DNA from: an uncultured Gammaproteobacteria bacterium
GTDB taxonomy: Bacteria > Patescibacteriota > Patescibacteriia > UBA9934 > UBA11717
Reading direction: 5' to 3'
DNA: 49,041 bases
Assembly: GCA_964365275.1 (NCBI GenBank)
Contig: CAYIOW010000002.1
Coordinates: forward strand, 1 to 49,041
Shown here piece by piece: positions 42,313 to 44,993 of the stretch. The stretch's first letter is position 1. Every line of letters starts with the position of its first letter. The position numbers and the translations under genes were made by a program. The notes beneath the pieces were generated by a model. It worked only from the letters and a program-made list of their open reading frames with translations. It was not told the origin of the DNA and made no database searches.

Positions 42313-43521
42313 TTAGCGTGGTATTTGGGCGCGGAAACCGCCGATTGCGCGTGTTGCCGGCGATAGTATGACTGATGCCGGACGAAAAATACGAGAGCCG
42401 AAACGAGAGCGGAGACGATCGGCGAAAGGTAAGAGCGCCGTGCGGCGGTTTGTTTTTTTATCAGTAGACAGTTGGATGGAGTTTGGCGCGAAGTCGTGAA
42501 GAGAGATGCCTATAAGCCGGATAGGCGATGAGTCGGCTATGATTAAGAGATGAGACAGAGCAGTTTCAAAAAATATAAGTCCGTCTGTTGTGGGGGAGGT
42601 GAGTGTGAATTGTTTGGAAACAAACGACAGGTCGCCGAAGCGAACCGTGAGCGTGATACGCCTTGCCGATAAATTATGACGACGCAAACGAAATGCCGTC
42701 ATTTCGGACAGAAGGAGGAGGGTGCTTCGTAGGAGCGCGTTGTTTGTTGTGTCAAATGGCAATGTGGTGCTGTGGCCGATTGATTTTGGGTCGTTAATAT
42801 TCGGCGATACGGGCGACGTGTCTATTCCGCGAACGGCGTTGAATATGAAATTGCCATATGAGTGAAACTCTGAAACGAGTTCGCTTACAGATATTCTTTG
42901 CGCGTCTACGGTAGTTTGTATTCCCCACCTCTCTTCCAAGTGTCGTAAAATTGAATTACCGATTCCGGGGATTGCGCCAAGCGATTGTTTGGCTACAAAA
43001 CTGGCTTCTTCGCCGGAGTTTACAATTGTAATTCCGTTTGGTTTTTCACATTCAGACGCCATTTTAGCGAGAAGTTTGTTGGGCGCGATACCGACTGAAA
43101 CTGTAAGACACTGTCCGAGTTCGCGACGAATATCATTTCTTATGCGCAAAACGATGGCTAGTGCGTCCAAAGTATCATGCGTGATATCGGTTATGTTCAT
43201 AAACGCCTCATCTATGGAAAAAATCTCTACGGCTTCGGTGTATCGTTTCAAAATAGATACGAAATGTTCAGAAACCTCGCTGTAGTAATCCGCGTTTCCT
43301 GGAACCAATATTAGTTCAGGACAGATTCTCATTGCCTCCGCCGTACTTATGCCGGTTTTTACTCCGCGGGCTTTTGCTTCGCGTGATGCGGTGGAGACGA
43401 TGGTGCGCTCTCCTGGTTTTCCCCCAACGGCAATGGCTTTACCGCGCAGAAACGGATTAGCTTGCTGTTCTGCGCTCGCGAAAAAAGAGTTGAAGTCAAT
43501 GTGAAGTATTGTTTGAGTCAT
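42313..43521 (-). CDS. dinB: DNA polymerase IV (Y-family)
   Basis: Start at MTQTILHIDFNSFFASAEQ. SIDEAF; the little-finger region is present. The ORF track extension to 43560 was rejected. Confidence 0.92.
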   Translation of the reverse strand: MTQTILHIDFNSFFASAEQQANPFLRGKAIAVGGKPGERTIVSTASREAKARGVKTGISTAEAMRICPELILVPGNADYYSEVSEHFVSILKRYTEAVEIFSIDEAFMNITDITHDTLDALAIVLRIRNDIRRELGQCLTVSVGIAPNKLLAKMASECEKPNGITIVNSGEEASFVAKQSLGAIPGIGNSILRHLEERWGIQTTVDAQRISVSELVSEFHSYGNFIFNAVRGIDTSPVSPNINDPKSIGHSTTLPFDTTNNALLRSTLLLLSEMTAFRLRRHNLSARRITLTVRFGDLSFVSKQFTLTSPTTDGLIFFETALSHLLIIADSSPIRLIGISLHDFAPNSIQLSTDKKTNRRTALLPFADRLRSRFGSRIFRPASVILSPATRAIGGFRAQIPR

Positions 43522-43529
43522 ATTGTTTA

Positions 43530-43787
43530 TTATTCTGCGAACATTTCTATAAGACGCCACTCCAATGTATCGGTATTGAAAGAGAGTTTAAAGAAATTCG
43601 TATTGTCGCTTACGGAGAAGAAAAAGCGTTTTGTACTTCCTTCATTAATACTGTGCACTGAATGCATGGTACGAATATCGTAAACTCGCCCGTTCCATGC
43701 CATAGAACGAGGAAGAACACGCAGACCGCAAAAGTCAACGCGTACTTCCACCGGTTCGTTTATGTTTTCTTGTGGCATAATTAACAT
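43530..43787 (-). CDS. hypothetical 85-aa protein immediately upstream of dinB
   Basis: Its stop lies 8 nt before the dinB ATG. No motif recognised. Confidence 0.45.
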   Translation of the reverse strand: MLIMPQENINEPVEVRVDFCGLRVLPRSMAWNGRVYDIRTMHSVHSINEGSTKRFFFSVSDNTNFFKLSFNTDTLEWRLIEMFAE

Positions 43788-43800
43788 AATTCGCGATATA

Positions 43801-43823
43801 AAAGAAAGCCCCCTTGCGGGGAC
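43801..43823 (-). terminator. GCAA-tetraloop hairpin plus U-run at the 3' end of the structured RNA region
   Basis: On the minus strand, GTCCCC-GCAA-GGGGGC followed by TTTCTTT. Confidence 0.55.
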
Positions 43824-43826
43824 TTT

Positions 43827-44273
43827 TGGTGGTTAGACCAGCATTGCTCGTCCCCATAAATATAAAACTTTTGTATCTATCTGTCAAACTCTGGAGCCGT
43901 GGAGGTGCGGGGATTTGCACCCCGATAGCAATTGTTGACGAGCAATGCTATGTACTAAACCACCCCCACGGATTTCAATGTTCAACGATAGCTTCTAGTG
44001 TCTATCTATGAGCGCGATATATAGTTATGCGAGCTGTTCAGCGTGGTGAGTTATTCGAATCTCGCCAAATTTCAGCATCATTAACCATGCTCGGACACGA
44101 CCCCCGTCTATCCAAGTGTGACAAATGATGTGATTAATAACTGAACAGCTCGTGATTTAATTGTGCGTCGTCCATGTTTCGGCGCACAGTTTTGCCTACA
44201 TGGATGGTGAGGCAAAACTATGCGTCGTGCAGGTTTGGTTTGATTGTGTCAGCGAAGATAGAGTAGGCAACCG
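43827..44273 (-). ncRNA. unclassified structured non-coding region between lexA and orf85-dinB
   Basis: No credible ORF. 12-bp long-range pair 44030-44041 / 44141-44152. 10-bp hairpin 44188-44197 / 44210-44219. 13-bp perfect pair 43840-43852 / 43937-43949, extended by GGTGGTT.AG / CTAACCACC. Confidence 0.45.
43897..43971 (-). ncRNA. tRNA-like module (G3:U70, A73, T-arm CGGGG-TGCAAAT-CCCCG, no D-arm, no encoded CCA)
   Basis: On the minus strand, CCGT-GGGGGTG ... CACCTCC-ACGG forms an 11-bp helix with a G-U at the third acceptor pair. It encloses the hairpin TAGCATTG..CAATTGCTA and a T-arm-like hairpin. Confidence 0.45.
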
Positions 44274-44894
44274 TTAGGCGGTTTGGAATTTGCGGATAAC
44301 GGCGCGGACTACTCCCTGGACTATTACATCGCGAACAAAAATGGGTTGCATTTCACGGTTTGCCGGCTGGAGACGAATGCGATTTGTCTCGCGATAAAAT
44401 CGTTTGAGTGTGGCGTAAGTATTATCTAGCAGGGCAACGACAACATCGCCGTTTTTCGGGTAATTGCTTCGTTCCACAACTACATAGTCGCCGTCAAAAA
44501 TCCCGTCTTCAATCATAGAATTCCCCTTCACGCGTAAAACATACGAGTTCATATGGTCTACAACAAAATCAGATGGTATCGCCATTGTTTCCTTTGTTTC
44601 TATCGCTTCAATCGGGGCTCCGGCGGCAATGAGTCCTGCGAGCGGTAGGTTAAAAATTCCGTGTCCCCAAGTTTCCTTCGGCTCAACCACTTCAATAGAA
44701 CGCGCCAACCCTTCCTCCCCACTCATCAGATACCCTTTTTCAATTAATGCCTGCACATGCTGAAACGCGGTTGCAGGTGACGCGAGTTCAAAATGGTCGG
44801 CAATCTCGCGATACGATGGCGCATACCCTTCGTCTTTAACAAACCCCTTTATGAAGGAGAACACTTCGGTTTGTTTGCGAGTGAGTGTTGGCAT
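44274..44894 (-). CDS. lexA: LexA repressor
   Basis: Start at MPTLTRKQTEVFSFI (wHTH). The C-terminal S24 peptidase has VKGNSM (Ser) and LKRF (Lys). The ORF track extension to 44957 was rejected. Confidence 0.9.
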   Translation of the reverse strand: MPTLTRKQTEVFSFIKGFVKDEGYAPSYREIADHFELASPATAFQHVQALIEKGYLMSGEEGLARSIEVVEPKETWGHGIFNLPLAGLIAAGAPIEAIETKETMAIPSDFVVDHMNSYVLRVKGNSMIEDGIFDGDYVVVERSNYPKNGDVVVALLDNTYATLKRFYRETNRIRLQPANREMQPIFVRDVIVQGVVRAVIRKFQTA

Positions 44895-44968: not shown

Positions 44969-44993
44969 TTTGTTCGTAGTATACACGAACAAA
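44969..44993. promoter_or_regulatory. perfect palindrome TTTGTTCGT-AGTATAC-ACGAACAAA with an embedded -10 (TGTATACT on the minus strand); candidate LexA operator
   Basis: 9-bp arms with a 7-nt centre, 75 nt upstream of the lexA ATG. The arms contain GTTCG/CGAAC half-sites. Confidence 0.5.

Follow-up and report, generated by a model that had tools for sequence, protein, structure and literature searches.

The spacer between lexA and an error-prone DNA polymerase cassette in a groundwater Uhrbacteria genome, read on the minus strand, consists of two parts of different age: a real, previously unclassified conserved structured RNA (44024-44236, minus strand; part A) and a genome-specific add-on (43797-44010, minus strand; part B) with tmRNA-type sequence. 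Our preferred reading, to which we assign a probability of roughly 45%, is that the conserved RNA is a cis-acting, terminator-embedded attenuator or 3' UTR element gating the operon from lexA to the polymerase. A sequence-only reading of this DNA had proposed, as one of several candidates, an SOS-linked ncRNA with two alternative folds, which merges the conserved 5' part and the lineage-specific 3' add-on. All positions refer to the window, i.e., the whole 49,041-nt stretch of DNA analyzed.

Genomic setting and folding of the spacer

The gap runs for about 495 nt from the lexA stop codon (44274-44276) to the true start of an 82-aa gene (ATG 43778), and the conserved RNA starts no more than ~40 nt past that stop codon. 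Lying together in most of 48 related loci are lexA, the gap, the 82-aa gene and the Y-family polymerase gene, with gap lengths across these loci ranging from 5 to 725 nt. Upstream of lexA, a palindrome of the form TGTTCGT-N7-ACGAACA is the probable LexA operator. The genes and the signal framing the spacer are as follows:

44971-44991, no strand: perfect palindrome TGTTCGTAGTATACACGAACA upstream of lexA, the sole zero-mismatch match in the window
44274-44894, minus strand: lexA (Pfam Peptidase_S24 and LexA_DNA_bind; homologs named LexA of Candidatus Uhrbacteria)
43530-43778, minus strand: conserved 82-aa gene, first of the downstream cassette (weak DUF6504 match)
42313-43521, minus strand: Y-family (DinB/ImuB-like) DNA polymerase gene (Pfam IMS, IMS_C, IMS_HHH_1)

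Thermodynamically, the minus strand of the 501-nt spacer reaches -170.8 kcal/mol vs. -125.9 +/- 5.5 for its shuffles (z -8.1; none of 100 shuffles folded as well), and the plus strand has a z of -6.1. Together with the covariance model scores on the lexA strand (see below), this bears out the earlier proposal of a structured RNA on the minus strand. As had also been noted from the letters, the gap holds no credible ORF: the only ones found are unconserved and at most 61 aa long, and those beginning at the invariant AUGGACGA span 28 to 61 aa in the relatives, with sequences that diverge past the first residues. The label "unclassified" holds as well, since Rfam 15 gave 0 matches across the whole window at the gathering threshold; five relatives searched at E up to 5 gave nothing relevant, and no lexA-linked or Patescibacteria RNA motif turned up in the literature. 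ARAGORN called 0 genes in the window and, over a further 49 loci, neither a tRNA nor a tmRNA in the lexA-polymerase spacers. The tRNAs that it detects in two of the loci (L012 and L013) are unrelated to the 43897-43971 module described below.

The conserved RNA downstream of lexA

Directly 3' of lexA, the part A RNA occurs in 17 further distinct Uhrbacteria sequences, and the family is thus narrow, with 18 distinct sequences (window included) from one Uhrbacteria subclade. Over ~240 nt, it comprises two adjacent hairpins and then a domain of several helices enclosed by P3, a stem of 11-12 bp:

44158-44236, minus strand: conserved domain 1, hairpins P1 and P2 (covariance model R1, 69.2 bits, E 3.7e-12; alignments A3 and A4)
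44188-44219, minus strand: P1 hairpin, 44210-44219 with 44188-44197 (inverted repeat, covariation)
44162-44187, minus strand: P2 hairpin GUGCGCCG-AAACAUGGA-CGACGCAC(A) (loop-loop complementarity, alignment)
44024-44157, minus strand: conserved domain 2, long-range stem P3 around P4 and P5 (covariance model R2, 46.3 bits, E 1.1e-8, full model)
44030-44152, minus strand: P3, 44141-44152 with 44030-44041 (inverted repeat, alignment)
44076-44130, minus strand: P4, a long hairpin tipped by the conserved GAC-GGGG-GUC-G, 44098-44108 (alignment)
44045-44066, minus strand: P5 hairpin GCGAG-AUUCGAAUAA-CUCAC (alignment)

The relatives examined were lexA-linked loci, and blastn of the window RNA against them returned short matches only, the family being recognized by eye, then by regular expression and covariance models. 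Evolutionarily, its helices are maintained by compensatory change. RNAalifold on the 18 sequences predicted 44 pairs, with compensatory changes in 30, and our own structure for 16 sequences had 89.5% of cells paired (vs. 29-42% in slid controls) and double changes in 50 of 76 pairs (vs. 14-21 when slid), with 0 of 500 shuffles reaching any of these measures. Strand is equally clear: the lexA strand gives covariance-model scores of 63-101 bits and the reverse at most 21 bits, and U-G pairs are frequent. In a leave-one-out search, the domain-2 model built without the window still matched 44024-44157 on the minus strand (E 1.1e-8). Homologs, compensatory changes and restriction to one strand are found together for 44024-44236 only.

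Position and operon layout are conserved too. Within the close clade, the shared core keeps a constant place after lexA, and in three loci with lexA homologs of similar identity but no downstream cassette (L065-L067) the RNA is absent as well, a link between RNA and layout that draws on just two or three independent lexA-only loci. A sister clade carries a different structured element and a canonical terminator at the same site, and the domain-1 core matched none of the viral contigs scanned.

Within domain 1, both of the long helices called by the sequence-only reading are relevant, one here (its helix (ii), now P1) and one in domain 2 (its helix (i), now P3); each is present where it had been placed, and the spacers of relatives, which that reading had suggested comparing, reveal strong covariation for both. 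P1 has double changes in 9 of 9 pairs and can be extended to 18-nt arms (44180-44197/44210-44227, 89% complementary), and P2 has double changes in 4 of 9. The P1 loop CACCAUCCAUGU holds the word UCCAUGU (44198-44204), to which the P2 loop (44171-44179) is complementary across 7 nt (UCCAUGU:ACAUGGA). This loop-loop pairing is 100% in 16 sequences and 6 of its 7 pairs never vary; judged by complementarity, the two invariant loops could kiss. An upstream hairpin of the relatives, P0, is poorly formed in the window.

In domain 2, the P3 arms CGAGCTGTTCAG/CTGAACAGCTCG (12 nt) are 100% complementary in the window, and double changes affect 6 of 11 pairs in the alignment. P4 (helices 6-8) is 92-94% paired, with double changes in 18 of 20 pairs. 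Its base resembles a pair of LexA half-sites in many relatives (UGUUCGU/ACGAACA), a reading that we rejected as the window has CAUCAUU/AAUGAUG there. Among relatives, a further helix, P4b, is an optional component of this domain. The P5 loop is a conserved 10-mer (A-N-U-C-G-A-..-A) that might be T-loop-like as a possibility only: read as UUCGA its first position varies, and shifting it to UCGAA accommodates 13 of 16 sequences. Besides the P1 loop, the P2 loop has a second complementary stretch, made up of UCC and the 4 nt that open the P3 3' strand (93.8% paired vs. 15-51% when slid). One of these pairs is A-U in 8 and G-C in 4 of the sequences, and at least the same value was obtained in 24 of 500 shuffles.

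The lineage-specific add-on

The add-on (a tRNA-like module, an alternative helix and an ACCACCA/terminator end) was found in this population only, and the module only in loci identical to the window, so that no comparative evidence bears on the module or the alternative helix. These elements, previously taken as parts of the RNA, lie outside the conserved RNA and are population-specific. Phage and plasmid searches with the add-on yielded nothing relevant. Its features are:

43897-43971, minus strand: three-way junction, a lineage-specific alanine/tmRNA-type minihelix (fold; 26-nt identity to permuted tmRNAs)
43828-43964, minus strand: imperfect inverted repeat, 43937-43964 with 43828-43852, the alternative helix (helix (iv) of the sequence-only reading), which excludes the minihelix fold
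43854-43887, minus strand: candidate sigma-70-like promoter match TTGACA-17-TATATT (11/12), inside the add-on (sequence)
43800-43826, minus strand: canonical intrinsic terminator ~20 nt upstream of the 82-aa gene (9-bp stem, GCAA loop, U tract)

Taken as structures, the junction, the alternative helix and the GCAA-tetraloop terminator (43826-43805, with its U tract) had all been correctly located from the letters. The junction is both the MFE and the centroid fold of 43890-43980 on the minus strand (-34.2 kcal/mol, z -3.1) and combines a closing helix of 11 bp, a 9-bp hairpin whose loop has 8 nt (43925-43951) and a T-arm, CGGGG-UGCAAAU-CCCCG (43908-43924). The alternative helix is built on a 13-nt perfect inverted repeat (43840-43852/43937-43949). 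The MFE of the whole spacer uses this helix and that of 43795-44010 alone uses the junction, so the two mutually exclusive folds really compete in silico. A candidate antiterminator, GGGGAC/GUCCCC, was rejected, having only 6 bp vs. the 9-bp GCAA-loop terminator and appearing in no MFE.

The earlier proposal of a tmRNA- or tRNA-like module stands for the acceptor and T-arm. The acceptor (GGGGGUG/CACCUCC) has 7 bp with G3:U70 and A73, i.e., the acceptor identity of tRNA-Ala and tmRNA, and CGGGGTGCAAATCCCCGCACCTCCAC (26 nt) recurs without a mismatch as T-arm plus 3' acceptor strand in 8 permuted tmRNA loci, 6 of which ARAGORN calls as tmRNA. In one bona fide permuted tmRNA (L075) the 5' strand GGGGGUG is also the same, making the acceptor stem identical. 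A 20-mer of T-arm and acceptor strand matches only permuted tmRNA loci in IMG/VR; the 17-nt T-arm alone is not specific, occurring also in a phage tRNA-Ile and many uncalled contexts. At the level of sequence, then, the tmRNA-type identity of the add-on is evident, and an origin from an ssrA- or tRNA-Ala-like sequence is most likely.

The remainder of that proposal is not supported. The module has no pseudoknots, no tag ORF and no D-arm, its middle arm has 9 bp and an 8-nt loop, RF00005 is not among its listed matches (E up to 10), its acceptor helix is lengthened by CCGU/ACGG, and its discriminator is followed by CGG (the gene reads A-CGG), not CCA. Between the acceptor 5' strand and the T-arm lie ~45 nt in which ARAGORN finds no tag (tmRNAs sharing this T-arm encode ANDNFA..LAA tags), and for the D-loop analogue (GG..UCGAC) and GGAC the module reads GUUUAGUAC and ..UGCUAU, vs. 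UGCUAGGAUCGAC and ..AGGAC in the tmRNAs. Rfam searches of the window, the module alone and five relatives, at gathering and permissive thresholds, peaked below threshold with mascRNA (23.5 bits), tmRNA_permuted (13.6-14.8 bits) and tmRNA (9 bits); at the module, tmRNA (RF00023) is the top-scoring tRNA-clan family, its 9 bits comparing with a cut-off of 47 and only the two model ends aligning.

Among known RNAs, the alphaproteobacterial permuted tmRNA (RF01849, RF04321) shares with the module the T-arm, 3' acceptor strand, A73 and next C over 26 nt, including the unusual UGCAAAU T-loop. However, the gene order of the module is not permuted, it has no coding piece, its host phylum differs, and it reaches 14.8 and 8.3 bits where the cut-offs are 47 and 50. 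mascRNA/MALAT1 modules (RF01684) are the top Rfam match to the module (E 0.004 on a 101-nt stretch) and likewise form a cloverleaf remnant 3' of a longer structured RNA, whose 3' end RNase P cleavage would create, but the score falls short of the 42.5-bit cut-off and the resemblance is one of generic tRNA-likeness. RF01684 is a vertebrate family, and homology to the module is implausible. Similar in layout are the rare CDS-less mini-tmRNAs, nearer to tmRNAs than to tRNAs, of phage DS6A, Mallomonadaceae plastids, jakobid mitochondria and Patescibacteria (PMC11915505), in that the module (~67 nt) consists only of a tRNA-like domain with a 7-bp acceptor with G3:U70, A73, a 5-bp/7-nt T-arm, a hairpin closing the P2 position and no tag frame, in a patescibacterial host. 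Likened to them from the published description, the module differs in escaping detection by ARAGORN and by the Rfam tmRNA models at their thresholds, in having neither D-loop analogue nor GGAC, and in being embedded in an operon spacer, with leader-trailer pairing, in one population.

Possible roles and significance

In one Uhrbacteria clade, the conserved RNA is present wherever lexA precedes the small-gene/Y-polymerase cassette, and as a cis attenuator it would be transcribed with lexA. All 15 relatives in alignment A3 have a U tract directly after P3, which suggests that this GC-rich closing stem also serves there as an intrinsic terminator. Most transcripts started at the LexA-controlled promoter would then stop after lexA, and the folded domains would set the extent of read-through into the error-prone polymerase genes, probably via a bound factor or ligand, or through the P2 loop competing for the P3 3' strand. 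In this genome, the U tract past P3 is lost (P3 is followed by CAUAACUA) and ~220 nt have been gained, with the alanine-type tmRNA/tRNA-like minihelix, the inverted repeat that competes with it and, some 200 nt downstream of P3, a new canonical terminator just before the cassette. At the least, the add-on would restore a terminator at that place. The comparisons show conservation, secondary structure, strand, linkage to the operon layout and the tmRNA-type sequence identity; termination and regulation, like any minihelix activity, are what we infer from these arrangements. The likeness to terminator-coupled cis-regulatory RNAs (riboswitches and attenuators that bind a protein or tRNA, such as T-box and RAT/LicT leaders) is in the complex conserved fold within an untranslated operon stretch, the conserved loops and junctions beside covarying stems, the GC-rich stem with, in relatives, a U tract directly upstream of the putatively regulated genes, and a plausible competing pairing that touches the terminator stem. 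Unlike leader attenuators, this RNA lies between cistrons after lexA rather than in a 5' leader, and its terminator stem closes the whole 130-170 nt domain rather than forming a separate small hairpin; it matches no Rfam riboswitch or leader in sequence or model, and any ligand, protein or antiterminator is putative.

Some observations weigh against attenuation. The U tract that is key to the terminator reading is missing from the window itself, a pairing that breaks no more than the 4 inner pairs of P3, out of 11, might leave termination intact, and the cassette could have an internal promoter, for which the window offers the 11/12 match inside the add-on (promoter scans in relatives are uninformative, as they miss even the lexA promoters). 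The same RNA might instead be a stable ncRNA from the lexA 3' UTR, acting in trans or as a protein scaffold, which we consider unlikely though deserving serious attention. Released by termination at P3, it would rise during the SOS response; the terminator-like end in relatives, an elaborate fold with invariant loops as in partner-binding RNAs, and the retention of the RNA in two loci missing the small basic ORF (L002 and L021) would all suit it. However, the RNA is absent where no polymerase cassette lies behind lexA, which a cis role fits better, and the window copy has no U tract. Self-cleavage separating the lexA mRNA from the polymerase mRNA is very improbable: the intercistronic position and the pseudoknot-like kissing core with invariant nucleotides (including CGAAAC) are compatible with a ribozyme, but there is no match to any Rfam ribozyme family (E up to 10) and the layout is unlike any of the known small ribozyme topologies compared. 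We give hardly any credence to a decayed protein gene or small hidden ORF. Relatives do encode a basic peptide of 27-54 aa between the RNA and the next gene, and a 33-aa TTG ORF of the window (43884-43985) contains SIAR, but the best hit of the peptide-family HMM in six frames of 43761-44300 had an E of 0.16 (6-sequence database), so that no decayed gene was recognizable, and in the conserved part substitutions are compensatory in helices and the frame is not preserved. An ATRKHK resemblance to the basic peptide is out of frame in the next gene and was taken as chance.

Other readings give a role to tRNA-likeness. Region 43897-43971 could be a working CDS-less mini-tmRNA that is processed by RNase P and at its 3' end, CCA-added, AlaRS-charged and SmpB-bound, serving as a decoy or modulator of trans-translation in the SOS response. 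The G3:U70/A73 acceptor (AlaRS reportedly charges G3:U70 minihelices; Francklyn and Schimmel 1989), the T-arm identical to that of bona fide permuted tmRNAs and the top rank of tmRNA within its clan speak for it. CDS-less tmRNA-like genes of ~65 bp are also known from plastids and from phage DS6A, whose copy is an inhibitor of host tmRNA, and the "Standard NoCDS" entries among bacteria come only from Patescibacteria and genomes of undetermined phylum (PMC11915505). We nonetheless think this quite improbable given the negative ARAGORN result, Rfam scores of 9 and 14.8 bits against 47, the missing D-loop analogue, pre-T-arm GGAC and encoded CCA, the 25-28 nt competing helix, and the presence of the same 17-nt T-arm in a phage tRNA-Ile and many uncalled contexts. 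Moreover, the acceptor helix runs 4 bp past positions 1 and 73, which should hinder processing, nothing shows selection on a module confined to one population of identical sequences, and none of ten small ORFs screened encodes SmpB. The Y RNA/YrlA identity put forward from the letters, in which the whole element would be an Rsr/Ro60-binding long stem with a tRNA-like module, found no support and is scarcely credible. From P3 through P4 with its G-rich loop, P4b where present and P5 with UUCGAAU in its loop to P3', the succession of helices does resemble that of tRNA arms, and the tRNA-like junction of the add-on sits on a long stem. But no Y_RNA or YrlA match appeared (E up to 10), no rsr was found among 16 window ORFs scanned with Pfam, the putative T-loop (UUCGA) varies at its first position, and the YrlA-like stem is not conserved.

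We retain the cis attenuator as our working interpretation. It is tempting to speculate further that it is a riboswitch-like or factor-binding attenuator of the Y-polymerase cassette in a CPR SOS operon, sensing a damage or growth signal via its kissing-loop and T-loop-like domains, and here joined to an SOS-induced, alanylatable, CDS-less mini-tmRNA modulating ribosome rescue, although we regard this larger scenario as a long shot. Since the family is narrow and its function inferred, we present the claim as a well-founded lead rather than a result.

To our knowledge, few regulatory RNAs have been described in Candidate Phyla Radiation bacteria, and we know of no post-initiation layer in SOS regulons, whose control is usually attributed to LexA operators alone. 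That an ornate, strongly covarying RNA lies between the gene for the SOS repressor and a cassette for an error-prone polymerase suggests that mutagenesis is also controlled after initiation and, if a signal is sensed, this RNA would represent a new orphan class of riboswitch or attenuator. The add-on, for its part, is a natural tmRNA-type alanine minihelix outside an ssrA gene, and as such bears on the origin of CDS-less tmRNA-like genes in Patescibacteria.

The lexA locus and its spacer

The window derives from a Candidatus Uhrbacteria genome (Patescibacteria/CPR), and Hainich groundwater assemblies are the source of contigs identical to it across this region. Its LexA shares 65-98% identity with the top-scoring homologs of a protein search, the named ones being LexA of Uhrbacteria or of the Patescibacteria group. 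The locus reads:

44971-44991, perfect 21-nt palindrome TGTTCGTAGTATACACGAACA upstream of lexA
44274-44894, minus strand, lexA (Peptidase_S24 and LexA DNA-binding domain)
~495 nt, minus strand, spacer between lexA and the 82-aa gene
43530-43778, minus strand, conserved 82-aa gene (weak DUF6504 match; 11 homologs by protein search)
42313-43521, minus strand, Y-family polymerase gene

Alignment with the 11 homologs places the start of the 82-aa gene at the ATG at 43778 (MPQENINEPVEV...), the longest ORF (43530-43787) beginning at 43787. The DUF6504 match to this family is sub-threshold (17.5 bits, cut-off 24.2), and a family member always precedes the Y-family polymerase gene. The palindrome probably serves as this lineage's LexA operator, and the lexA-to-polymerase operon would therefore be SOS-controlled. 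Gene content upstream of lexA varies (contigs L053:1592-2419, L054, L055 and L056-L058): several relatives carry a tyrosine recombinase gene with Phage_integrase domains directly upstream, others have a SAM synthetase gene near lexA, and the window has a DUF5676 gene upstream of it instead.

The sequence-only reading had described the spacer as structured RNA, and all of the pairings it listed were recovered at their positions. The spacer far exceeds dinucleotide shuffles in stability (z -8.1 for the lexA strand, -6.1 for the other) and holds no credible ORF. Across the whole window, Rfam at curated thresholds gave 0 matches, and ARAGORN called no tRNA and no tmRNA.

Comparison loci were gathered from genomes and metagenomes via the 82-aa protein family, with further contigs added via LexA homologs, the resulting set being lexA-linked loci. 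Of the 48 loci from genomes and metagenomes, most retain the order lexA, gap, small gene, polymerase, with gaps of 5-725 nt. Small basic ORFs of one family, 27-54 aa long (e.g., L052:3420-3548, L023:3612-3779, L049:3390-3542), separate the lexA-3' RNA from the 82-aa gene in most relatives as well as in more distant clades; they have an N-terminal M..S[IL]A.R.W.AT and a C-terminal R..K[IM]L[VI]V.A motif and are missing from the window and from loci L002 and L021. At this locus, two related Uhrbacteria also have near-identical tRNA genes beyond the polymerase gene (L013:6240-6315 and L012:6358-6433), called by ARAGORN as tRNA-Ala(tgc) and tRNA-Thr(tgt); the D-arm region of both is unusual (GGAGGUAAUGGUA(A/G)CCUCG).

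A conserved structured RNA 3' of lexA

In the closest clade (LexA at least 72% identical to that of the window), every gap opens with the same core: an invariant AUCCAUGU, then 19 nt on an invariant CGAARCAUGGACGA, and further along GACGGGGGUCG and GAGAWUCGAAUAACUC, plus a long-range stem. In the window this RNA spans 44024-44236 on the minus strand. An RNAalifold consensus of 18 distinct sequences contains 44 pairs, and compensatory changes occur at 30. Extended by hand on a 16-sequence alignment, the model comprises domain 1 (P1, P2) and domain 2 (P3-P5):

P0, UUCG hairpin, weak (53% paired) and poorly formed in the window; tentative
P1, 44210-44219 with 44188-44197, minus strand
P2, 44180-44187 with 44162-44170, minus strand
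P3, 44141-44152 with 44030-44041, minus strand
P4, long hairpin made up of a base, a 2-bp internal element, a mid-section and a GAC-GGGG-GUC-G tip
P4b, optional hairpin, in half of the sequences
P5, hairpin with the loop A-N-U-C-G-A-N-N-A-N

P1 and P3 had already been noticed from the sequence. In the 16-sequence alignment, standard pairs fill 89.5% of cells, vs. 29-42% when 3' partners are slid by 1-3 columns, and both sides have changed in 50 of the 76 pairs (14-21 after sliding). Across 500 column shuffles, not one of five pairing measures was ever reached, and most of the covariation comes from P1, P4 and P3. The strand is clearly that of lexA: a domain-1 covariance model scores 63-101 bits on it and at most 21 bits on the opposite one, and U-G pairs are frequent. 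A domain-2 model built without the window recovers 44024-44157(-) over its full length (46.3 bits, E 1e-8), hence the window copy is a true member.

Neither domain model found a match in more distant clades, elsewhere in the window, or in three contigs (L065-L067) with LexA of similar identity and no polymerase cassette after it. Rfam searches of the window and five relatives gave no family match even at permissive E-values, and no described motif of this kind was found in the literature. This RNA is well supported as a new structured RNA family associated with an SOS/translesion-polymerase operon of Uhrbacteria.

The loops of P1 and P2 share a 7-nt complementarity, UCCAUGU with ACAUGGA, in which six pairs never vary and the seventh alternates between U-A and U-G only. 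From this complementarity and invariance, rather than from covariation, we infer a kissing-loop interaction. The only near-identical variant contig, L068, has 3 differences in 347 nt, at 921, 926 and 978 (window 44233, 44228 and 44176), of which the C to U at 44176 turns a G-C of the proposed kissing helix into G-U and keeps the pairing. Two further observations concern the window itself. Only in the window can P1 be extended, to an 18-bp hairpin at 44180-44227(-) (CGACGCAUAGUUUUGCCU/AGGCAAAACUGUGCGCCG) that the single-sequence MFE favours over the conserved P1+P2. The extension consumes the P2 5' strand, since a copy of the P2 3' strand lies upstream of P1. In addition, the UGUUCGU/ACGAACA words of the 44971-44991 palindrome form the P4 base in many relatives, not in the window.

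A tRNA-like add-on in the window

The 3' half of the window gap (~43797-44010) has no counterpart in any relative; there, the gaps of relatives hold repeats, the small basic ORF or no sequence at all. In the window, P3 is no longer followed by a U tract (CAUAACUA); ~220 extra nt stand in its place, which fold well alone (z -6.0) and include:

43897-43971, minus strand, three-way junction (the tRNA-like module)
43937-43964 with 43828-43852, minus strand, competing inverted repeat
43800-43826, minus strand, textbook terminator ending the add-on, ~20 nt before the next gene

The MFE shows either the junction or the inverted repeat depending on the flanks included.

Scanning IMG/VR with GGGGTGCAAATCCCCGCACC returned eight contigs, all sharing their context (GGAC before, CACCTCCACCA after). 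ARAGORN called a permuted tmRNA at six of these eight loci, with tags such as ANDNFAPMALAA, and Rfam alpha_tmRNA matched all three loci tested (103-113 bits). The window shares 26 identical nt with these loci (CGGGGTGCAAATCCCCGCACCTCCAC), including the unusual UGCAAAU T-loop, and L075, the only locus examined over its whole length, shares the 5' acceptor strand GGGGGUG. The acceptor stem and T-arm of the module are thus specifically of alanine/tmRNA type. The 17-nt T-arm CGGGGTGCAAATCCCCG alone is less specific, occurring in 55 viral IMG/VR contigs, including in a phage tRNA-Ile. Among these loci (L081-L127; e.g., L092:12453-12469, L084:91-107), ~30 copies have CATG/TATG before and CCCGC.. or CCATCTGC... 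after; ARAGORN made no call at the five tested (L081, L083, L092, L098, L104), making this a recurrent tRNA-like element outside ARAGORN calls.

The module is a genuine sequence feature, and the very divergent tmRNA-like RNA suggested from the sequence is borne out in its acceptor and T-arm; it nevertheless qualifies as neither tRNA nor tmRNA and is part of a single-lineage add-on. As a tRNA, the junction leaves ARAGORN and RF00005 silent, has no D-arm, and its middle arm is 9 bp long with an 8-nt loop. Within the tRNA clan, tmRNA scores best for the isolated module, at only 9 bits; the top hit of all, to the tRNA-like mascRNA model at 23.5 bits, falls short of that model's cut-off. Unlike true tmRNAs, it is without tag frame, pseudoknots, D-loop analogue, GGAC before the T-arm and encoded CCA; its acceptor helix is extended by four more pairs. 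The closest published likeness is to the rare CDS-less tmRNA-like genes of ~65 bp, found in phage DS6A and some plastids; among bacterial phyla, "Standard NoCDS" entries come only from Patescibacteria and genomes of undetermined phylum (PMC11915505). The module shows no sign of selection, and every copy of the add-on has the same sequence and belongs to a single population. We regard the add-on as an insertion specific to this lineage, derived from an ssrA- or tRNA-Ala-like sequence and at the least providing a terminator again; that the module works as a mini-tmRNA is an interesting possibility, albeit of low probability.

The Y RNA/YrlA identity also raised from the sequence was rejected, with no model match, a proposed stem that is not conserved, and no rsr among the ORFs screened. 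Known ribozymes gave no matches, and a decayed gene was likewise discarded, the small basic peptide profile finding nothing in the spacer.

Proposed role of the conserved RNA

The conserved RNA starts a few tens of nt past the stop codon of lexA, so there is hardly space for a promoter. In all 15 relatives of the alignment, a run of U immediately follows the GC-rich P3, an intrinsic-terminator signature with the whole P4-P5 domain as its "loop". The next genes (small basic ORF where present, 82-aa gene, polymerase) lie within tens of nt. At the same position, a sister Uhrbacteria clade has a different conserved structure and a canonical terminator. Together with the cassette association, these features make a cis-acting attenuator the most likely reading. 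Most transcripts from the LexA-controlled promoter would end after lexA, and the folded RNA, possibly with a ligand or protein partner, would set the share that reads through to the error-prone polymerase genes. A serious rival is a stable ncRNA derived from the 3'UTR; promoter scans are uninformative on whether the cassette has its own promoter, since they miss even the lexA promoters.

The sister-clade element (L009:1930-2080, L007:3590-3770, L011, L005/L026, L042), just 3' of lexA, consists of two hairpins, a long one (GAUCCC...GGGAUC) and a second (GUCCU..AGGAC), followed by the terminator, whose loop, CCUCCUCCUC, is anti-Shine-Dalgarno-like; it has no match in Rfam.

For the attenuator, the P2 loop could offer a switch, being also complementary to UCC plus the first four nt of the P3 3' strand. 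This pairing is 93.8% formed (vs. 15-51% in slid controls), and at one position 8 sequences have A-U and 4 have G-C. As 24 of 500 shuffles do equally well, it is no more than suggestive; just 4 of the 11 P3 pairs would be opened by it, and the window is without it. The sequence-only interpretation holds in part: of the new SOS-linked ncRNA that it had proposed, the tRNA-like module is set apart as a single-lineage add-on, and the valuable part of the finding is the conserved 5' RNA.
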